Shown here one piece after another: positions 3,766 to 28,450 of a stretch of 30,002 nucleotides of DNA. The notes under the pieces were generated by a model that ran no database searches, was not told the origin of the DNA, and saw only the letters and a list, made by a program, of their open reading frames with translations. The DNA lies in contig NZ_NVQC01000018.1 in the NCBI RefSeq assembly GCF_003044035.1, positions 1 through 30,002 of the forward strand. Reading direction: 5' to 3'. Position 1 is the stretch's first letter, and the number at the start of each line of letters is the position of its first letter. This DNA is from Candidatus Methylomirabilis limnetica. Its GTDB lineage: Bacteria > Methylomirabilota > Methylomirabilia > Methylomirabilales > Methylomirabilaceae. A program made the translations under genes and the position numbers.

Positions 3766-3933
3766 GTAACTACTCAGGTGTTTAGGCTGTAGGCTGAGGG
3801 CTGTTAGTCATTGCGCACGGACCGAATCAAGGCGCACTGCGTCGGCCAGTTCAAACGCTCTGAGCTTGGTATGGTCTCGCATGGTGCGTTCCTACAGTCT
3901 AAAAGCCTACAGTCTATCTACCTGAGTAGTTAC
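3766..3933 (+). mobile_element. MITE B1 (168 bp), GTAACTACTCAGGT terminal inverted repeats, 8-bp TSD CGTGAATC
   Basis: The TIRs lie at 3766-3779 and 3920-3933. Identical 8-mers CGTGAATC lie at 3758-3765 and 3934-3941. The internal arms are long and complementary (GGCTGTAGGCT.. / ..AGCCTACAGTC). Confidence 0.9.
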
Positions 3934-5975: not shown

Positions 5976-7662
5976 GAAGGCGACACCAGCCGTCACTAGC
6001 TCCCGCCGATGGGTTCGAGAAGTCGCTGTGACGACCCTCCTCCTTGGTGTCGGCCTGCTGCTCTTCTTCTATCGCCTGGATTCGCTCTACCTGTTCGACG
6101 CAGATGAGCCGGCCTACGCGGAGGCGGCGAGGGAGATGCTGATCTCGGGAGACTGGATCACACCCCACTTTAATTTCCAGCCTCGCTTCGATAAACCGAT
6201 CTTATTCTACTGGCTGATCGCGCTGGCCTACAAAAGCTTCGGGATCGGCGAGTACGCGGCCCGCTTCTGGTCTGCCGCCTTTGCTGCCGGCCTCACGGCG
6301 TCGATCTACCTATTCGGACGGCAACTGCTTGGCCGGCGGGGCGCATGCATTGCCGCTCTGGCCTTTGCCACGAACGTCGGGACCATCGTTCTGGGGCGGG
6401 CGGCGGTCACCGACATGACGCTCGCCTTTTGCATGACCTGGGCACTCTTCTGTTTTTTCGATGTCTATCGGGCTACAGACAAGACGCACGAGAGCCTCCT
6501 CTTTGTTGGATATCTGGCTGTGGCGCTCGCCGTTCTCACGAAGGGCCCGATCGGCCTTTTGCTTCCTGGGCTGGTTATCGGCCTGTTTCTGATCATTCGT
6601 AGAAAGGTCCGAGCGACTCTTTCCAGGCTTCGGCTGCTCAGCGGCCTTGCGCTGTTTACCGTGATCGCCCTTCCATGGTACGTCTTGGTCCTGCGCGAGA
6701 ACGGATGGACGTTTGTTCAAGGATTCTTTGTACAACACCACCTGAACCGCTATCTCGGTGTAGTGTCAAGCCATGTCGGGGGCCCCCTGTATTTCTTGCC
6801 GGTGGTCGCCCTCGGCTATTTTCCGTGGAGCGGAACGCTGCCCAATGCCTTTGGTCATCTCTGGGCTATCCGAAGTCGATTACGTGATGAACTAACCGGA
6901 CGACAGGAATTGTTACTCTTTTTATGGGTCTGGTGTGGTGTCGTCGTGCTCTTTTTCTCATTCTCCCACACGAAACTCCCGTCCTATATCTTCCCCGCTG
7001 TCCCTGCGCTCGCCTTGCTGACAGGGGCTGCGGGAGAGGCCGCCATCGACGAACGACAGCAGGGATGGAGGTGGGAGAGGGCATGTGACTGGCTCGTGGG
7101 TGGGATGGCCTGTTCACTTGCCGTGATCCTCCTCTTCCTACCATCAATTGCTGATCGTATCCGCCTCCGCGAGGCGCCTGATATTCCCCCATTTGATTTT
7201 GGGCTGGCGCCTTACGTGCTGGCTGTCCTCCTCCTGGTTGGACTTGGCCTTGCGCTAGTAGCCAGGCGAAGAGGGCAGGGGGATATGGCAGTGGCCGCGA
7301 CGGCGGTCACGATGATCCTGAGCATCGTGCTGGCCGTGCATCAGGTTGCCCCGGCCATACAGGAGAGTCTTCAGAAGTCTCTCCACGATTTCGCCATTAT
7401 CGCCAGGCAAGAGCTTCGCCACGGTGACATCCTGGTGGCCTATGACCTGAACGCACCCAGCCTTGTATTTTACTCAAAACGACAAGTCGCGATCATCAAG
7501 AGGGGAGAGGAAGCCGGGTTTCACGGTCTTGCCGTCTCTTATGGGCGGCTCTTCATCGTAGCCAAGGCCGCCGCAGAGACTCGCTTGCAACAGGTCCCGG
7601 ATATTTTCCCCTTGGACAGGCGAGGGGGGTATGTCCTATACTCTAATCGTTACAGTCCGTGA
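5962..7662 (+). CDS. GT-C fold glycosyltransferase, ArnT/PMT-like (family 39/83)
   Basis: The N-terminal loop DADEPAYAEAAREMLISGDWITPHFNFQPRFDKPILFYWL is typical of ArnT/PMT_2 enzymes, and there are more than 10 predicted TM helices. The start at ATG 5962 overlaps the PAP2 stop by 14 nt. The track start at 5773 lies inside the PAP2 gene. Confidence 0.85.
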   Translation: MGTPEKATPAVTSSRRWVREVAVTTLLLGVGLLLFFYRLDSLYLFDADEPAYAEAAREMLISGDWITPHFNFQPRFDKPILFYWLIALAYKSFGIGEYAARFWSAAFAAGLTASIYLFGRQLLGRRGACIAALAFATNVGTIVLGRAAVTDMTLAFCMTWALFCFFDVYRATDKTHESLLFVGYLAVALAVLTKGPIGLLLPGLVIGLFLIIRRKVRATLSRLRLLSGLALFTVIALPWYVLVLRENGWTFVQGFFVQHHLNRYLGVVSSHVGGPLYFLPVVALGYFPWSGTLPNAFGHLWAIRSRLRDELTGRQELLLFLWVWCGVVVLFFSFSHTKLPSYIFPAVPALALLTGAAGEAAIDERQQGWRWERACDWLVGGMACSLAVILLFLPSIADRIRLREAPDIPPFDFGLAPYVLAVLLLVGLGLALVARRRGQGDMAVAATAVTMILSIVLAVHQVAPAIQESLQKSLHDFAIIARQELRHGDILVAYDLNAPSLVFYSKRQVAIIKRGEEAGFHGLAVSYGRLFIVAKAAAETRLQQVPDIFPLDRRGGYVLYSNRYSP

Positions 7663-7692: not shown

Positions 7693-8670
7693 GTGATTGC
7701 CGAGACGATTCTCTCTCCTGTTACTTCTGAACTCGCCCTGGTCGAGGAGCGGCTGCTCCAGGACATAGGCGGCGATGTAGAGTTGATCTCCGAGATTATC
7801 CGGTATGTGCTCAAGAGCGGCGGTAAACGGGTCCGACCTGCGCTGCTGCTGCTTTCGGCAAAGCTCTGCGGCTATTGTGGCGGCTCTCGTAACATTGAGC
7901 TTGCGGTGGCGGCAGAGTATATGCACGCTGCCACGCTTATCCATGATGATATCATCGATCGTGCCGACAAGCGCCGCGGACTCCCGTCGGCGAATAATGC
8001 CTGGGGTCCTCAGATCTCCGTGCTGGCCGGCGATTTCCTCTATGCCAGATCGATTCAGATCCTGGTGACAGATGGTGACTTGGCTGTCTTACAGACCTTT
8101 GCCGACGCGACGGTTCGGATGATTGAGGGTCAGGTGCGCGAGGTTCAGATGGCCGGAAACCTCGACCTCACTTATAACGAGTATCTGAACATCATGACGT
8201 TAAAGACCGCTGCCCTGATCTCAGCCGCTTGCAGGACTGGCGCCCTGATCGCCGATAGACCAGCGGAGGATGTGGCTGCGTTAACCGAGTTCGGCTTGAA
8301 TGTGGGGATCGGGTTCCAGTTGGTCGATGACGCGCTGGATTTTGTCGCCGAGGAGTACCGGCTGGGTAAGCCGGTAGGGAACGATTTCAAAGAGGGAAAG
8401 ATGACGTTTCCGGTGCTCCATGTGATGCGGACAGGCTCGGAGGCCGATAAGGGCAGGATCAGAGAGTTGGTCGCGCAGGAGACCATCGGAGAGTCTGATC
8501 TGGCAGAGGTAAAGGCGATAATGGAACGGTATGGCGCCGTTGCGGCCACGATGGAGCTCGTTCGCAACTACCTCAAGAAAGCCAAGGCATCCCTTGGTAG
8601 CTTTCCGGATTCGGACGCCAAACGTTCGCTTGTCCTGATGGTCGATTTTATAGGAGATCGAGACTGGTGA
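7693..8670 (+). CDS. Long-chain trans-polyprenyl diphosphate synthase (IspB/HepT-like)
   Basis: Both Asp-rich motifs are present: LIHDDIIDRADKRRG and GFQLVDDALDF. The start is GTG with GGAGG at 7681-7685. Confidence 0.9.
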   Translation: MIAETILSPVTSELALVEERLLQDIGGDVELISEIIRYVLKSGGKRVRPALLLLSAKLCGYCGGSRNIELAVAAEYMHAATLIHDDIIDRADKRRGLPSANNAWGPQISVLAGDFLYARSIQILVTDGDLAVLQTFADATVRMIEGQVREVQMAGNLDLTYNEYLNIMTLKTAALISAACRTGALIADRPAEDVAALTEFGLNVGIGFQLVDDALDFVAEEYRLGKPVGNDFKEGKMTFPVLHVMRTGSEADKGRIRELVAQETIGESDLAEVKAIMERYGAVAATMELVRNYLKKAKASLGSFPDSDAKRSLVLMVDFIGDRDW

Positions 8671-10593: not shown

Positions 10594-11228
10594 CGCGGCA
10601 GACGATGGATGAGACGACAAAGAAGGATCAGGAGCCCACTTCGCAGCCAGGCGCGAAACCGGAGAAGTCGGTCATTCGGCAATATTCCGAGGCCGTCATC
10701 ATTGCCATTATCCTGGCGCTGGTGATCAGAAGTTTTATAATCCAAGCCTTCAAAATCCCCTCTGGATCGATGCTCCAGACGCTGCAGATCGGCGATCACA
10801 TCATGGTCAATAAGTTCCTGTATTGGTTTACCGATACGCAGCATGGGGACATTATCGTGTTCAAGTATCCCCAGGATGAGGAGAGAGACTTCATTAAGCG
10901 AGCGGTCGCCCTGCCAGGTGATAAGATGGAGATACGGGGAAAACAGGTCTACATCAACGATAAGCCTATCGCTGAGCCGTACGCGGTTCACCTGGATCCT
11001 GACATCATCGAGAAATCGAGTTCGCCTCGGGACAATTTCGGTCCGGTCGTGGTTGCGCCGGGTCAACTCTTCATGATGGGCGATAACCGGGACTACAGCA
11101 TGGATAGCAGATTCTGGGGCTTTCTTGACATGAAGAAGATCAAGGGGAAAGCTTTTATTATCTACTGGTCGTGGGATCACGAGCGCTTCAGGCCCCGCTG
11201 GGAGCGAATCGGGATGTTAGTCCGATGA
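10590..11228 (+). CDS. lepB: Signal peptidase I
   Basis: The IPSGSM (Ser nucleophile), KR and [14 protein letters not shown] boxes are present. An ATGA overlap couples it to lepA. Confidence 0.95.
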
Positions 11229-12439
11229 AGGCAGTTTCGAGTTTCAAGTTTCGAGTTTCGAGTTCTAACTCTGCCATAGACCCGAAACCCGAAACCAGAA
11301 ACCCGAAACCCTTCGGTTTATACATCCATATCCCCTATTGCCTGTCACGCTGTCATTACTGCGATTTCAACACCTATCGTCTTGATGACGCTCACGTACA
11401 GCAGTATCTGGATGGGCTTGCGCAAGAGATAACGCTCCGCGCCTCCGCTATGGCGATCCGAGACCGGCGGGTCTGTTCCGTCTTCTTTGGCGGCGGGACG
11501 CCCTCAATACTGCAGGCATCGCAACTCATCGGCATCCTCGACCACTGTCGAGCCGCCTTCACCTTCGAGGATGGCGTAGAGGTCAGCCTCGAGGCCAACC
11601 CCGGGACGGTGGACCTTCCGAAGCTTCGTACGCTGTGGGAGGGCGGGGTGACCCGTCTGAGTGTAGGGGTTCAAGCTGTTCAGGACCGACTCCTCCAGCG
11701 GATCGGTCGTGCTCATGCTGCCTGCGAGGCTAAACGGGCTTTCTGGCTGATGCGTGAGGCCGGCTTCAGCAACATTAACCTGGACTTAATGTTCGGCCTG
11801 CCCGGTCAGAGTATCGGTGACTGGTCGGAGACCCTTGACTGGGCCATCAGCGTGGGTCCTGAACATGTCTCTCCCTACGGGCTGATCCTTGAAGAGGGGA
11901 CACCTCTGCACCAGGAGCATCGCCAAGGGGAGATTGGGCTACCCGACGAAGAGGCGGAGGCAGTGATGTACGGGATGGCCGTGGACCGGCTGCTTGACGC
12001 CGGCTTTGAGCATTACGAAATCTCAAACTTTGCGCGTCCCGGCTTCCGTTGTCGCCACAATCTGGTTTACTGGCACCACCAGGAATACCTCGGCATGGGG
12101 GCGGGAGCTCACTCATTCCTTGCCGGGCGCCGGTTTTATAACGAGTTACTGCCTGCAAGCTACGTGCGCGCCATTAGCGAGCGTGGGACAGCCGTAGCCG
12201 GCGACGAAGAGCTTTCCGCTGAGATGCTGCGATCTGAGCGTCTAATGTTGGGGCTTCGGCTCCGGGCCGGACTGGACGTGCAGGTATTCAAGGACGTACT
12301 TAGCATTGAAGATCTCTCTGCGTCTGATCGAGTTACCCGTCTCCTGGATGATGGGTTTCTTCGCGTGAAGGAGGGGCGGGTGCAGATCACAGAGCGAGGG
12401 CTCCTCGTGGCCAATGAACTGATTGTCCAGCTCCTCTGA
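11225..12439 (+). CDS. hemW: Radical-SAM haem chaperone HemW (HemN-like), with a repeat-derived N-terminus
   Basis: YIHIPYCLSRCHYCDFN is the CxxxCxxC radical-SAM motif, and a HemN C-terminal domain follows. The start at ATG 11225 forms an ATGA overlap with the lepB stop. Codons 4-29 are encoded by the heptad hairpin element. Confidence 0.9.
   Translation: MKAVSSFKFRVSSSNSAIDPKPETRNPKPFGLYIHIPYCLSRCHYCDFNTYRLDDAHVQQYLDGLAQEITLRASAMAIRDRRVCSVFFGGGTPSILQASQLIGILDHCRAAFTFEDGVEVSLEANPGTVDLPKLRTLWEGGVTRLSVGVQAVQDRLLQRIGRAHAACEAKRAFWLMREAGFSNINLDLMFGLPGQSIGDWSETLDWAISVGPEHVSPYGLILEEGTPLHQEHRQGEIGLPDEEAEAVMYGMAVDRLLDAGFEHYEISNFARPGFRCRHNLVYWHHQEYLGMGAGAHSFLAGRRFYNELLPASYVRAISERGTAVAGDEELSAEMLRSERLMLGLRLRAGLDVQVFKDVLSIEDLSASDRVTRLLDDGFLRVKEGRVQITERGLLVANELIVQLL
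11231..11313 (+). repeat. Heptad hairpin element copy H-A
   Basis: The left arm is GTTTCGA GTTTCAA GTTTCGA GTTTCGA GTTC (11234-11265). A 13-nt loop follows. The right arm is GA CCCGAAA CCCGAAA CCAGAAA CCCGAAA CCC (11279-11311). Confidence 0.9.
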
Positions 12440-12442
12440 TTC

Positions 12443-12623
12443 GTAACTATAAGGTGTTTAGGCTGAAGGCTGAAGGCTGTTAGTCGTTGCGCATGGACCG
12501 AATCAAGGCGCCCAGATTTATCTTGGTCTCCATCATGTTCGCGTCGCATTCAGAAAACGCCTGGCTCATCCGTACGCGTTCCTACAGTCTAACAGCCTAC
12601 AGTCTATCTGCCTGAGTAGCTAC
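12443..12623 (+). mobile_element. MITE B2 (181 bp), degenerate TIRs, 8-bp TSD TCTGATTC
   Basis: The ends are GTAACTATAAGGT.. and ..CCTGAGTAGCTAC. TCTGATTC lies at 12435-12442, where it contains the hemW stop codon, and again at 12624-12631. Its centre resembles B1. Confidence 0.85.
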
Positions 12624-13872: not shown

Positions 13873-14027
13873 GTAACTACAAGGTGTTTAGACTGAAGAC
13901 TGAAGGTTCTAAATTATCTCGCAAGGCACGAATCGAGTCATTCAAGACCTTTTCGGAGTTTTGTATGATCACGCATGGCTTACTCCTAAAAGCCTTCAGC
14001 CTTCAGTCTATCTACCTGAGTAGTTAC
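13873..14027 (+). mobile_element. MITE B3 (155 bp), TSD (T/C)ACCGATG
   Basis: The ends are GTAACTACAAGGT.. and ..CCTGAGTAGTTAC. ACCGATG lies at 13866-13872 and 14029-14035. It is about 90% identical to B4. It lies between hrcA and grpE. Confidence 0.85.
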
Positions 14028-14058: not shown

Positions 14059-14700
14059 ATGGATCAAGAAAACGAAGAAGCCAAAGCGCCGACAAGCGAT
14101 AACGTCCAGGAGAGCCCTGTCGCCCCCACGACCGAGCTAGAGTTGACGATCGACAAGCTACAGGCCGTTCTCAAGGAAAAGATTGCTGAGGTAGAGTCGC
14201 TCAACGACCGCCTCCTTCGCCTGCAGGCGGAGTTTGAGAACTACAAGAAGCGAGCGGCCCGCGAGCGGGGCGAGTTCGTGAGGTTCGCGAACGAAGGACT
14301 ACTTTTAGAGCTGCTGCCTGTGGGGGACAGTCTGGAGCATGCTGCTGCCACGACCAGGTCTGGAGCAGACGCTCAAGGCGTTGCCGAAGGCCTCGATGTC
14401 ATTCGGCGGCTTTTTCAGGCAACATTGGAGAAGGTAGCGGTGAAGGCCATCGAGGCGTTGGGGCATGAGTTCGATCCGAACTTCCATCAGGCTGTGATTC
14501 AGGTAGAGTCGACTGATGGACTGGACAACATCGTGGTCGAAGAGGTCCGAAAGGGGTACCTCCTGGAAGGACGTTTGCTGCGGCCGGCGATGGTAAAGGT
14601 ATCGAAGGGAGCAGTTCCGAGTTCCGAGTTCCGAGTTTCGAGTGTCGATGAGGATGAACCCGAAACCCGGAGCCCGGAATCCGGCATATATGAGCCATGA
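14059..14700 (+). CDS. grpE: Nucleotide exchange factor GrpE with a repeat-derived C-terminal tail
   Basis: A coiled-coil N-terminus, LRLQAEFENYKKR and ..GYLLEGRLLRPAMVKVSKG (where GrpE usually ends) are present. A further 29 aa, AVPSSEFRVSSVDEDEPETRSPESGIYEP, is encoded by heptad element H-B. Confidence 0.93.
   Translation: MDQENEEAKAPTSDNVQESPVAPTTELELTIDKLQAVLKEKIAEVESLNDRLLRLQAEFENYKKRAARERGEFVRFANEGLLLELLPVGDSLEHAAATTRSGADAQGVAEGLDVIRRLFQATLEKVAVKAIEALGHEFDPNFHQAVIQVESTDGLDNIVVEEVRKGYLLEGRLLRPAMVKVSKGAVPSSEFRVSSVDEDEPETRSPESGIYEP
14611..14686 (+). repeat. Heptad hairpin element copy H-B
   Basis: The left arm is GTTCCGA x3, GTTTCGA, GTGTCG (14614-14647). The right arm is GAAC CCGAAAC CCGGAGC CCGGAAT CCGGC (14656-14685). 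Confidence 0.85.
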
Positions 14701-19818: not shown

Positions 19819-19974
19819 GTAACTACTCAGGTGTTTAGACTGAAGACCGAAGGTTCTAAATTATCTCGCAAAGCACGAGTCGAGCCATTCAAGATCTTTT
19901 CGGAGTTTTGTATAATCACGCATGACTTACCCCTAAAAGCCTTCAGCCTTTAGCCTATCTACCTGAGTAGTTAC
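19819..19974 (+). mobile_element. MITE B4 (156 bp), perfect 14-bp TIRs, 8-bp TSD TTCACGCG
   Basis: GTAACTACTCAGGT (19819-19832) pairs with ACCTGAGTAGTTAC (19961-19974). TTCACGCG lies at 19811-19818 and 19975-19982. It sits in the rho 5' leader. Confidence 0.9.
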
Positions 19975-22950: not shown

Positions 22951-23970
22951 ATGGCGGGTACGCTTGCAGAAGAAGTGCGAAGCGCGGGGTCCGAGGTGCG
23001 GAAGCAGCCCACCCCGCACGTCTTCACATATCGCCGCGTGGTGGAACGGTTGGTGGATAGTGGCGTGGAAAGCGCGTTGCTCGACGCGGCGTGCCTCATT
23101 GAGGCCGCATCAGGAATCCCACGGTGGCGGTTCATACTGGACCCGGAGCAATCGATCCCCTCGGACAAATCTTGCCTCCTTGAATCGATGGTATCACGGC
23201 GCGAGGCCAGAGAGCCAATTGCCTATATCCTCGGAGTGAAAGAGTTTTGGTCTCTTCCCCTTACGGTGGGTTACGACGTCCTGATCCCGAGGCCGGAAAC
23301 CGAAACGCTTGTCGAGGCCGTCCTCGAGAAGATCGGTTTCGAGTTTCGAGTTTCGAGTTTCGAGTTTGCTCGTGATAGTTCGAGGTTGACTGCTGGTTCT
23401 GTAAACCCGAAACCCGAAACCCGCAACTCGAAACTTGTTATCGTGGACCTTGGCACCGGTAGCGGCGCGATTGCCTTGGCGCTTGCTGTCGAGATGCCCC
23501 ACGCGCTTGTTTACGCCATCGATCGTTCGCCTGGCGCTTGCAGGATTGCCAGGCGGAACATAGAGGCGCTGGGGTTGACGAGCAGGGTTCACTGCGTACA
23601 GGGCGATCTGCTTGATCCGCTTCGGACGATTGACGCTGGAGGAGGGTGCGACCTGATCGTTTCAAATCCTCCGTACATCCCTTCCGGAGCATGCGGCTCC
23701 CTGTCTCCTGAGATCGTCGCCTACGAGCCTCTTGAGGCCTTAGATGGCGGTCCTGACGGTCTCCGCTATCATCGGCGAATCATCGAAGAGGCTCCCGCCT
23801 ATCTTCGCGAAGGAGGCTGGCTATTCCTCGAGGTCGGCGACGGTCAGGCACCAGCCGTGATGGAACTGATCCGGAAGACAGAAGGCTTCGGACCAGCCGG
23901 GGTGAGGCAGGACGTAGCGGGTCGTGACCGAGTCGTCTTTGCGCCACGGCGAGGGAGGGCGCTTGGATAA
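22951..23970 (+). CDS. prmC: Release-factor glutamine N5-methyltransferase PrmC/HemK carrying an internal repeat insertion
   Basis: [39 protein letters not shown] and NPPY (SNPPYIP) are present. An alternative start is GTG 22945. About 34 aa between [15 protein letters not shown] and IVDLGTGSG derive from heptad element H-C. Confidence 0.92.
23335..23436 (+). repeat. Heptad hairpin element copy H-C (inside prmC)
   Basis: The left arm is GGTTTCGA (GTTTCGA)x3 GTTTG (23335-23368). A ~34-nt loop follows. The right arm is AAC CCGAAAC CCGAAAC CCGCAAC TCGAAAC (23403-23434). Confidence 0.9.
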
Positions 23971-25219
23971 ACTGATTATCAGAGGTGGGGCGCCCCTCAG
24001 AGGACAGGTAGAGGTTAGTGGCGCCAAGAACGCGGCCCTGCCGGCAATGGTGGCGTCTTTACTCACAGAGGAGTCGATCCGGCTTCATCGTATTCCGCAA
24101 CTGGGCGACGTGAGGACGATTATCGGTCTGCTCAACCATTTAGGCGTGAGCGTCGAAGGACGTGATCGAGAGCCCATATCCCTTCGTGCTGATCGCATCG
24201 ATCGGTTTGAGGCTCCCTACCAACTGGTCAAGACGATGCGGGCATCGGTGCTGGTGCTTGGCCCGCTGCTGGCCCGTTTCGGCCGGGCACGGGTCTCTTT
24301 GCCAGGAGGGTGCGCGATAGGGACGAGGCCGATCAATCTGCATCTCGCAGCCCTTGAGAAGATGGGTGCAACGGTCAGCTTGGATGCCGGGTACGTAGAG
24401 GCCAAGGCGCCACGCTTGAAGGGTGCCAGGATCACATTTGATGGCCAGACCGTTACCGGCACCGAGAATCTGATGATGGCCGCCACCCTGGCGGATGGGG
24501 TTACGGTATTGGAAAACGCCGCGTGCGAGCCCGAGGTCACTGACCTGGCCGCCCTGCTGAATCGCATGGGGGCGAGAATCGAAGGCGCTGGTACTCCGAC
24601 GATCAGCATCGAGGGTACCTCACATCTGCACGGGGCAGAGCACGAGGTGATCCCGGACAGGGTCGAGACCGGGACCTTTATGGTTGCGGCTGCGATTACC
24701 GGTGGTGATGTGACCATCAATCGCTGCCTGCCGTATCACCTGGAAGCAGTCACGGAGAAACTGCGGGAGACAGGCGTGCGCGTGGAGGAGACGGACTGTA
24801 GTATTCGGGTCGTGGGAGATGGGCACGTGAGAGGAGTCAATATCAGGACCCACCCCTATCCCGGGTTCGCCACCGATATGCAAGCGCAAATGACGGCTCT
24901 CATGTCTATTGCCCAGGGGAGCAGCGTCATCACCGAAACAGTTTTTGAAAACCGATTTATGCACGTGAATGAGCTGCTGAGGATGGGTGCGGACATCAAG
25001 GTGGTTGGTACTACCGCGTTCGTCCACGGAGTTCCCACGCTGTCGGGCGCGCCAGTGATGGCCACCGACCTGCGGGCGAGCGCATCGCTGGTTCTGGCGG
25101 GACTGGCCGCTCAGGGGATTACGACTATCTCGCGTGTCTACCATCTGGACCGGGGATACGAGTCGATTGAGCAGAAGCTCCTCGGCCTCGGCGCCAGCAT
25201 CGAGCGAGTCGCAGAATAA
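23963..25219 (+). CDS. murA: UDP-N-acetylglucosamine 1-carboxyvinyltransferase
   Basis: (M)[26 protein letters not shown] is the canonical MurA N-terminus, and the active-site loop [12 protein letters not shown] is present. The start is TTG 23963 with GAGGGAGGG 4 nt upstream, giving 418 aa. The track start GTG 23924 is less likely. Confidence 0.93.
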
Positions 25220-25225
25220 AGGAGA

Positions 25226-25306
25226 GTTTCGGGTTTTGAGTCCCGAGTTTCGAGTTGGGACCAGAAACCCGAAACCCGAAACGCGAAACATGGAACATGG
25301 AACCCA
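25226..25306 (+). repeat. Heptad hairpin element copy H-D (murA-hisG spacer)
   Basis: The left arm is GTTTCGG GTTTTGA GTCCCGA GTTTCGA GTT (25226-25256). The right arm is AGAAACC CGAAACC CGAAACG CGAAACA TGGAACA TGGAACC (25263-25304). The hisG ATG lies in the last degenerate heptads. Confidence 0.85.
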
Positions 25307-28330: not shown

Positions 28331-28344
28331 TGTGCGTGGTGTAA

Positions 28345-28395
28345 AAATTCCTTCACCCCCCCCTTTACGAAAGGGGGGCACGGGGGGATTTGAGG
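28345..28395. repeat. C/G-tract palindromic element copy F1 (hisC-hisB spacer)
   Basis: The sequence is ..CACCCCCCCC TTT ACG AAA GGGGGG CAC GGGGGG ATTT. It has a 9-bp perfect inner stem (CCCCCCTTT/AAAGGGGGG) with a 3-nt loop. Its core matches the reverse complement of 29371-29405. Confidence 0.8.
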
Positions 28396-28450
28396 TGCGG
28401 GGTGCGAAGGGCGAAGGACACAGTGCAATGGAGCAGATGGAGGTCGGGTG

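Follow-up and report, generated by a model that had tools for sequence, protein, structure and literature searches.

The GTTTCGR heptad hairpin of Candidatus Methylomirabilis limnetica, a dispersed tandem repeat with translated copies

Heptanucleotide repeats are reported in the literature to be in excess in bacteria. The subject here is a hairpin whose arms are tandem GTTTCGR and CYCGAAA heptads, four copies of which lie in a stretch of 30,002 nucleotides from Candidatus Methylomirabilis limnetica (contig NZ_NVQC01000018.1, positions 1 to 30,002 of the forward strand), referred to below as the window. The repeat combines heptamer simple sequence repeat arrays with a placement like that of repetitive extragenic palindromes (REPs) and an absorption into genes like that of Rickettsia palindromic elements (RPEs), and its sequence and hairpin architecture differ from those of the heptamer arrays already on record. 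On balance, the copies are probably dispersed, non-autonomous tandem-heptad hairpin repeats that would be governed by slippage dynamics and by a reading-frame filter.

Among the tandem arrays already described, the repetitive sequences known as STRR (short tandemly repeated repetitive) have the heptamers CCCCAGT, TTGGTCA and CAACAGT. Heterocystous cyanobacteria are the hosts given for these heptanucleotide arrays (Mazel 1990 and Vioque 1997, both by way of PMC2858038); the title of the second of these works places them inside a functional gene, that for RNase P RNA. G-rich heptamers of Xanthomonas and Nostoc, GGGNATC and GGGGA(C/T)T, come in four units adjoining stop codons (PMC4692102). The GTTTCGR family resembles both kinds in its tandem 7-nt units, in a mode of about four units, in lying within about 50 bp of stops, and in the strong variation of length and sequence at orthologous sites of close relatives. 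It differs in its heptad and its taxa, and in that most of its units lack the G-run that defines a quadruplex. Moreover, inverted stem-loop pairs are occasional in those repeats, whereas in the GTTTCGR family the hairpin is the rule, and the family, unlike them, is heavily translated in Methylomirabilota. It is not an STRR in the strict sense, the unit being GTTTCGR/CYCGAAA and the hosts Methylomirabilota, Acidobacteriota, Chloroflexota and others.

Two further heptamers bear comparison. In Geobacter metallireducens, (GGACCGG)x4, in 49 copies, and (MTYCTGA)x5 occur within and between genes (PMC2700814); these are of other sequence and from one genome, and that paper contains no analysis of hairpin pairing, reading frame or empty sites. 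TAACTGA repeats are common to Beggiatoaceae, Cyanobacteria and Bacteroidetes, with "no mechanism evident" (PMC4679880). Like the GTTTCGR hairpins, they represent one 7-mer across distant phyla, mostly intergenic and non-randomly placed with respect to genes. They are, however, direct repeats (with one inverted case) upstream of starts, whereas GTTTCGR forms inverted pairs after stops; and the forward orientation of TAACTGA holds stops in all three frames and could not be absorbed that way, whereas GTTTCGR is open.

Among palindromic systems, RPEs measure about 150 bp, have a conserved sequence and peptide per family, and are confined to Rickettsia (review PMC10969869). A preliminary description of the window had drawn this parallel, and it is a sound one: both kinds are palindromic and lie in frame in unrelated housekeeping open reading frames (ORFs), at positions that the fold tolerates, where they add peptide segments. 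Unlike RPEs, the GTTTCGR family conserves its arms alone, changes its unit number, leaves its peptide free to vary, and occurs in both orientations and in many phyla. REPs and their paired form, REPINs, are short imperfect extragenic palindromes found in many copies just 3′ of genes in proteobacteria (PMC3733652, PMC8049555). The concentration 3′ of genes, the high copy number and the two inverted halves around a variable spacer are shared with the GTTTCGR family, which differs in lacking a GTAG/CGTC tag, in that no REP-associated tyrosine transposase (RAYT) was seen within 2.5 kb of 69 loci, and in being built of tandem repeats. REPs are rarely translated and are not based on tandem repeats, whereas the GTTTCGR family is translated in Methylomirabilota. 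The element had been put forward as undescribed. Heptanucleotide arrays as such were already known, but no description of the GTTTCGR family was found in the literature; searches with the literal heptad sequence returned nothing bacterial, and those for Methylomirabilis and repeats returned nothing.

In the window, in which all genes lie on the + strand, reading of the regions confirmed four (GTTTCGA)n-loop-(CCCGAAA)n hairpins on that strand at the positions first given for them (Table 1). Copy 4 had been drawn too long: its hairpin is real, with a right arm that ends at 25288, and the sequence reaching to 25306 belongs to another repeat, (AACATGG)2.4. When the window was probed with pairs of heptads, allowing up to 2 mismatches, there were 18 and 15 matches against 0.2-0.3 expected, counts that were reached by none of 100 shuffles. 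For each of the eight arms, Tandem Repeats Finder reported a period-7 array with 4.1-4.7 copies, as expected if each arm is a tandem 7-mer, and all four copies folded as long hairpins, with z-scores from -3.6 to -9.3. In copy 2, the right arm carries changes (CCCGGAx) that compensate for the GTTCCGA units of the left. Over the length compared, the window also matches a metagenome contig (ENA ERZ4201065), and its PrmC and HemW orthologues assign it to Candidatus Methylomirabilis (NC10).

Table 1. Hairpin copies of the window and the genes that host them
Feature	Position	Strand	Left arm	Loop	Right arm	Left-arm units	Right-arm units	Remark
Copy 1	11231-11313	+	11234-11261	11262-11280	11281-11308	GTTTCGA, GTTTCAA, GTTTCGA, GTTTCGA	CCCGAAA, CCCGAAA, CCAGAAA, CCCGAAA	
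Copy 2	14611-14686	+	14614-14648	14649-14658	14659-14684	GTTCCGA x3, GTTTCGA, GTGTCGA	CCCGAAA, CCCGGAG, CCCGGAA, TCCGG	
Copy 3	23335-23436	+	23336-23363	23364-23405	23406-23433	(GTTTCGA)4	CCCGAAA, CCCGAAA, CCCGCAA, CTCGAAA	
Copy 4	25226-25289	+	25226-25253	25254-25260	25261-25288			
hemW	11225-12439	+						host of copy 1; ATG overlaps lepB stop (ATGA)
grpE	14059-14700	+						host of copy 2; stop overlaps dnaJ start (ATGA at 14697-14700)
prmC (hemK)	22951-23970	+						host of copy 3; start as called on identical contig L001

Absorption into coding sequence had been claimed for the repeat and is borne out for three of the four copies, in HemW, GrpE and PrmC; copy 4 lies outside genes, with the murA stop (25217-25219) before it and the probable hisG ATG (25297) after it. 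The hemW ATG at 11225 is the sole usable in-frame start ahead of the radical-SAM motif, copy 1 begins 9 nt downstream of that start, and the Pfam Radical_SAM domain begins at residue 33; about codons 3-30 come from the copy (4-29 in the earlier reading). In GrpE, the Pfam domain stops at residue 183 of 213, and the last 30 or so residues (earlier put at 29) derive from copy 2, reading on to the ATGA overlap with dnaJ. Copy 3 provides residues 131-165 of PrmC (the earlier estimate was about 34 residues) in a 341-aa reading for which gene callers set a later start. These residues stand in for about 6 linker residues of E. coli HemK (2B3T), between the N-terminal domain and the methyltransferase fold. 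In an AlphaFold2 model, both domains are confident, with a mean predicted local distance difference test score (pLDDT) of 82, residues 135-161 fall below 50, and disorder is predicted for the insert. Pfam domains lie beside the translated inserts or extend across them.

Evidence also comes from orthologous sites, at which empty, filled, contracted and expanded alleles were all found when sequences with and without the insertion were compared. The relatives included L043, with about 83% DNA identity to the window, and L076, a sister Methylomirabilis genome of a more distant species. Across 120 PrmC orthologues, the segment from PRPETE to DLGTGSG ranges from 30-33 residues, the length seen in E. 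coli and in some lineages of NC10, to as many as 84 in others; its length changes in 7-residue steps, and its heptads fall into "dialects" (FEFRVSS/PETRNPK, SRFQVPG/EPGTRNL, SQFTVHS and SAECGVR/PAPRTPH). At the DNA level, the prmC linker site measures 90 nt where it is empty (L074), 93 nt where it has contracted to a 7-bp mini-hairpin (L073), 180 nt in the window and L043, 225 nt in L076, which has another heptad, (GTTCCAG)n...(CCCGGAA)n, and 252 nt in L075, where a 21-nt unit is repeated three times. All of these length differences are multiples of 3, and the clearest differences at translated ORF sites are of 21 nt (three units, seven amino acids). Comparison of the window with L043 gives an identity of 92.9% for the prmC element (100% in the left arm and 88% in the loop) against 83% and 72% for the codons on its flanks.

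The HemW site tells a similar story. A relative with 90% protein identity (L201) lacks exactly the 75 nt of copy 1, while five lineages carry exactly 75 additional nt, with arms homogenised internally per lineage: (GTTTCGA)4 with (CCCGAAA)4, GTGTCGA-like units with (CTCAACA)4, a right arm of (TCCACGC)4, and (ATGTCGA)4 with (TCCGCAA)4. In general, each arm is internally homogenised and the heptad sequence drifts between lineages. The GrpE tail in L076 has the same length and the same ATGA overlap as in the window. An orthologous murA-hisG copy is present in L043, L073 and L076, with a heptad that differs between lineages. The hisD-hisC junction is filled in L076 and L073 and the hisB-hisH junction in L076, whereas the window and L043 have both empty; in the genomes with a filled hisD-hisC, the HisD ORF runs through the insert to the original ATGA overlap. 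Retained ATGA/GTGA stop/start overlaps are seen at lepB/hemW, at grpE/dnaJ (two lineages) and at hisD/hisC (two lineages). About 8 heptad hairpins fall within 21 kb of L076, the majority of them within genes or at their ends. L076 has further in-frame inserts in HisF, HisD and PrmA, and one heptad variant, GTTCCAG, is common to its prmC, hisF, hisB-hisH and murA-hisG loci. In its PrmA-like gene, whose right arm would include TGA if perfect, TGA is retained in two right-arm units, where it is out of frame, and CGA stands in the unit where TGA would be in frame.

From the multiples of 3, the preserved overlaps and the avoidance of in-frame stops at orthologous sites, it follows on comparative grounds that ribosomes translate the inserts and that the reading frame is under selection. 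In programmed bypass elements, such as those of T4 gene 60 and the mitochondrial byps, the insert is skipped by the ribosome, and a frame or stop constraint is unneeded. Bypass of this kind does not fit the heptad hairpins, whose inserts come in multiples of 3 nt, avoid TGA solely in frame and preserve the overlaps.

Absorbed copies can be translated because their heptads give no stop triplet in any frame. That neither heptad produces a stop on either strand had been stated earlier, and computation agrees; the cyclic peptides are identical in every frame, VSSFEFR and PETRNPK in the forward direction as first reported, and SKLETRN and FRVSGFG in reverse. The six-frame openness is real but reflects no special design: both strands are free of stops in about 50% of all heptads (61% when weighted by composition), and with one A.C pair per heptad about 40% of hairpins are open in all six frames. 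Openness is a filter and not a design. Arrays of a stop-containing heptad noted in the window (AGGCTGA, within a transposable element discussed below) are all intergenic.

Under the reading favoured here, replication slippage in steps of 7 nt would lengthen, shorten and homogenise the arrays. Copies that landed in, or expanded over, gene ends, coupled junctions and inter-domain linkers would simply be translated, and within genes alleles with a length that is a multiple of 3 would alone survive, as disordered tails or loops.

The GTTTCGR hairpin does not stand alone. A count over 525 kb of DNA gave 181 other period-7 arrays, compared with 12 after shuffling and with 18-74 when the period was 6, 8, 9 or 10. 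Of 198 period-7 arrays, 84 were paired as complementary inverted repeats, each arm having 4-5 units irrespective of the heptad (both counts include a few duplicate records, an inflation that was estimated, not recomputed, at below 5%). The GTTTCGR hairpin is one of many heptad-hairpin families, and the genomes that hold them are rich in period-7 arrays. One other family, (TAGGGTT)n/(ACCCTAA)n, was seen in Methylomirabilota at L042 16-100 and L060 6734-6810; it contains stop triplets on both strands, and its unit is the plant-type telomere repeat TTTAGGG. In the hisC-hisB spacer of the window (28331-28447), a lone GGTGCGR array lies directly upstream of hisB beside a C8/G6-rich hairpin, and hisC stops earlier; in L076 (15546-15575), the HisC ORF continues through a GGTGCGR array to an overlapping stop/start. 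The murA of L076 is read as two ORFs, 11055-11897 and 11958-12350, with an in-frame stop between them and no heptad array at the break, and could be a pseudogene, a sequencing error or a case of recoding.

Beyond Methylomirabilis, the general consensus of the family is A(GTTTCGR)~4, a variable loop and (CYCGAAA)~4 T, in an element of 50-140 bp. The exact 28-base hairpin pattern was found at 69 loci in a set of bacterial and archaeal genomes with one genome per species, labelled Methylomirabilota, Acidobacteriota, Chloroflexota, Binatia, Verrucomicrobiota, Planctomycetota, Pseudomonadota, Bacteroidota, Nitrospirota, Omnitrophota and others; cyanobacterial records were absent from these 69 loci. 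The family is present in at least 10 phyla. Mis-binning is excluded as the cause of this spread because closed genomes and contigs of 0.4-3 Mb are among the carriers; AP021857.1 and CP070743.1 are two closed genomes that carry the family outside Methylomirabilis. Three records probably are mis-binned or mislabelled contigs of metagenome-assembled genomes (MAGs), namely L043 and L057 (DATMXF01), labelled Patescibacteria, and L046 (CAMBFS010000004.1), labelled a Klebsiella pneumoniae MAG; the last of these holds 12 period-7 arrays in 8 kb.

In addition, a scan of metagenomes with a degenerate pattern returned at least 120 contigs with the hairpin. The positional and mismatch tallies below come from those 120 and hold, like the figures for flanks, ends and arm units, among the matches listed. 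Head-to-tail 7-nt units make up these 120 copies too, and the number of units has its mode at 4 in both arms. A search of 5.8 billion proteins with the idealised arm peptides returned mostly domain-less ORFs of 43-112 aa, together with one-arm matches from a cryptophyte, and gave no useful list of host families. The numerous short "hypothetical proteins" annotated across such hairpins are artefacts. The cryptophyte matches are many partial hypothetical proteins of the alga Baffinella frigidus that agree with one arm at 83-100% identity, a sign that a eukaryotic genome may contain a simple satellite similar to (CCCGAAA)n.

Placement relative to genes sets the Methylomirabilota apart. Of the 120 metagenome copies, 70 follow an ORF of 150 codons or more at a distance of 0-36 nt from its stop (mode 0-4 nt), and about 5 are truly internal to genes; the sample of genome loci has a similar pattern. 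A stop triplet falls within 7 nt of the element boundary in 36-42% of copies against 13% at random, and flank logos rule out a built-in stop codon or a fixed target sequence at the termini. Absorption into genes, which had been presented as the behaviour of the element, is accordingly true of Methylomirabilota, while elsewhere the usual habitat is intergenic, just 3′ of stops. Likewise, the common orientation of copies and genes holds for the Methylomirabilota loci examined and gives way to mixed orientation in other lineages. Further in-frame inserts do occur in other phyla and in both orientations, in genes for a UvrA-like protein, valyl-tRNA synthetase (ValRS), a P-type ATPase, a glycosyltransferase (GT1), an IorA-like protein, a B12/radical-SAM protein and a DUF1553 protein. 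The ValRS gene of an Omnitrophota MAG (L066, JACPSR010000061.1) has three in-frame heptad-hairpin inserts, at about 6122-6182, 6826-6897 and 7757-7824, of which two belong to the GTTTCGR family in opposite polarity and one has a different heptad.

The arms had been described as complementary apart from one A.C position per heptad. This is correct for the present lineage and does not extend to a general rule: in the degenerate scan, the position holds A-T in 40% of cases, G-C in 16%, G.T in 22.5% and A.C in 21.6%, the frequencies predicted from independent R and Y frequencies. The excess of A.C in the exact-pattern collection arose because the search pattern forced it. In the translated copies of Methylomirabilota, the mismatches are A.C on the sense strand and G.U on the antisense, a bias opposite to the positive GC skew of the window. 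Sense and antisense energies of HemW hairpins are -32/-47, -24/-48 and -14/-28 kcal/mol, and the consensus folds at -4.5 kcal/mol in sense against -17.5 in antisense; in one HemW lineage (L199), the pairing is wholly lost and the arrays persist. Intergenic copies that can be polarised by a single upstream gene show 39 G.U against 23 A.C unit pairs, or 22 against 11 elements (p = 0.08). It may be hypothesised that selection acts against strong mRNA structure under ribosomes and that structure is tolerated, or mildly beneficial, in 3′ untranslated positions. This strand effect is offered as a hypothesis because the arms are homogenised, so that independent events are few. In translated copies, the sense RNA hairpin would then be selectively weakened through A.C mismatches, and in 3′ untranslated copies it would be kept through G.U wobbles, probably serving at most as a REP-like 3′ stem-loop.

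Such a stem-loop leads to a different explanation, in which the repeat is a selected cis-acting element (a 3′ stem-loop, a binding array for a protein that reads 7 nt, or a (GGGTTTC)4 G-quadruplex switch) and the copies in genes are by-products. The far from random placement directly after stops, the G.U-over-A.C trend in the transcript sense of 3′ copies and the compensatory changes that maintain arm pairing would all suit it, as would the mode of four units in both arms, which recalls the Xanthomonas/Nostoc G-quadruplex heptamers (PMC4692102). The heptad is conserved across phyla beyond what pairing requires, and the prmC element is more conserved than its flanks. Even so, this explanation is rather unlikely. 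No U-run follows the hairpin, copies occur inside operons between genes with coupled translation, a setting in which termination would do harm, the loss of pairing in HemW lineage L199 left the arrays in place, and no family in Rfam matched at a permissive threshold, at which chance matches to a miRNA hairpin model were the sole result. The quadruplex variant fares no better, with the CCC run (GGG on the other strand) present in about 38% of right-arm units, the rest having CTC, and with unrelated AT-rich heptads sharing the 4-5 unit mode.

Two narrower candidates were set aside in the same connection. An intrinsic terminator was ruled out by the lack of a T-run after any of the four window copies and by a flat downstream logo. 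A G-quadruplex as the general cause of the four-unit mode was ruled out as well, since AT-rich heptad families share the mode and most units lack the G-run; the copies of the window itself do have the G-runs of the (GGGNNNN)4 pattern, which the GTTTCGR family at large does not.

Another explanation treats the repeat as a strict mobile element, similar to a MITE (a miniature transposable element with inverted repeats), a REPIN or an RPE, that is copied whole by a trans-acting enzyme and transferred horizontally between phyla. Several observations are as this would predict: dispersed multiple copies within genomes (8 strict matches in one Chloroflexota MAG and 4 in one Pseudomonadota MAG), differences in presence between close relatives, and the same heptad in many phyla. 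When loops were compared with the arm sequence masked, those of separate copies proved unrelated in nearly all genomes, the window included, the exception being a Phycisphaeraceae MAG in which two copies with different flanks have the same loop and a third carries it inverted, as judged by eye. Mobility of this strict kind is unlikely, in view of the unrelated loops and of the further tests. Flanking repeats of at least 5 bp accompany 4.2% of copies against 6.4% of random placements, whereas a genuine MITE of the window gave target-site duplications of 7-9 bp in the same test. Conservation of the flanks is confined to a single base beyond the arms, A before GTTTCG and T after CGAAAC, and the GTAG or CGTC tetranucleotide tag is absent from the flank and end logos. 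Within 2.5 kb of the 69 loci, there was no recurrent neighbouring protein family and no transposase or RAYT, and 2.9 million viral contigs contained no match and hence no phage carrier. REP-RAYT pairs are normally lineage-specific, whereas this heptad is identical across phyla. An enzyme of the HUH/RAYT type, specific for single-stranded hairpins, would leave no target duplication, and copies at the exact centre of a palindromic flank are what hairpin targeting predicts. Such copies were found at L013 3749-3825, L071 2343-2429 and L053 1429-1487, where the flanks are perfect inverted repeats, for example GGGGCGGGGAAAAA on one side of the element and TATTTTCCCCGCCC on the other; each hairpin is centred in a larger palindrome, possibly a former terminator stem.

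Membership of the MITE class is not supported. The arms do amount to terminal inverted repeats, as in MITEs, but the lack of target-site duplication, the unrelated loops and the lack of a recurrent neighbouring gene at the 69 loci rule against it. The genuine MITE of the window, of about 155-180 bp, occurs at 3766-3933, 12443-12623, 13873-14027 and 19819-19974, always on the same strand and always intergenic. It has the terminal inverted repeats GTAACTAC...GTAGTTAC, and an interior that is conserved in two subfamilies, and its subterminal arms are themselves heptad repeats, AGGCTGA and CAGCCTA, that include stop triplets.

The nesting of some copies in palindromic flanks has also been weighed as a sign of origin in situ, with slippage and template switching acting where a short palindrome or a terminator stem already stood, in which case the shared heptad would be a matter of convergence on readily slipping sequences. 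The many unrelated period-7 arrays of these genomes, 42% of them in complementary pairs, agree with such an origin. In a deep-branching relative, the PrmC site is empty and reads GGTTCGAAG, which is similar to one unit; at the hisD junction, the left arm looks like the Shine-Dalgarno sequence whose place it took. The proposal is nonetheless improbable, for a 28-base identity at hundreds of unrelated loci in at least 10 phyla would very unlikely arise by convergence. In addition, related heptads with one or two changes are less common, and inspection found no slippage-prone feature common to the families, the TCGA palindrome being present in the main family only.

Finally, it is conceivable that the encoded repeats VSSFEFR and PETRNPK are selected protein modules. 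The HemW extension has 31 residues in most Methylomirabilis lineages, and inserts persist in essential proteins. The peptide, however, varies freely between lineages at the same site, both orientations occur and give differing peptides, the PrmC insert is predicted to be disordered, most copies are intergenic, and the peptide searches return mainly spurious short ORFs; the idea is accordingly very hard to credit.

For the favoured reading of tandem-heptad hairpins shaped by slippage and filtered by frame, the local dynamics and the tolerance within genes are well supported, while horizontal spread of the 7-mer across phyla is a default guess. Several points weigh against it. Slippage would have to be read from comparisons between lineages, and together with drift it does not by itself explain an identical heptad at many loci and in many phyla, or one heptad variant across the loci of L076. 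The frame constraint fails to explain the four-unit mode because intergenic copies share that mode. The trend toward a weaker sense hairpin comes from few independent mutations, and the intergenic counter-trend has p = 0.08. The prmC element, loop included, is better conserved than its flanks, which hints at a constraint that the slippage model does not name.

These points leave some room for a more speculative idea, which is doubtful as it stands, that heptad hairpins are the footprint of a shared process so far unrecognised, with GTTTCGR as one horizontally spread "template" in bacteria of soil, freshwater and groundwater that represent at least 10 phyla. The process would involve no DDE transposase and could consist of an activity, either templated or specific for single-strand hairpins, by which inverted arrays of about 4 units would be written and homogenised for any heptad. 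If true, it would account for the 4-5 unit mode of unrelated heptads, for the variant shared within a genome and for identical units in distant phyla.

Whatever their origin, the copies matter for annotation, as 25-55 extra residues in such essential proteins as PrmC, HemW, GrpE, HisD, HisF, ValRS and UvrA of Methylomirabilota and other genomes rich in heptads derive from a repeat. The hundreds of loci, the hairpin architecture and the contrast with a true MITE make both the excess of 7-nt repeats and their sharing across phyla testable. The opposite mismatch polarity of translated and untranslated copies would, if confirmed, provide a read-out of selection on mRNA structure. For protein evolution, the repeat is a clear case outside Rickettsia of selfish or neutral repeat DNA turned into protein segments, and its empty, filled, contracted and expanded alleles, with their 21-nt steps, in-frame stop avoidance and preserved coupling, form a readable record of how this comes about.

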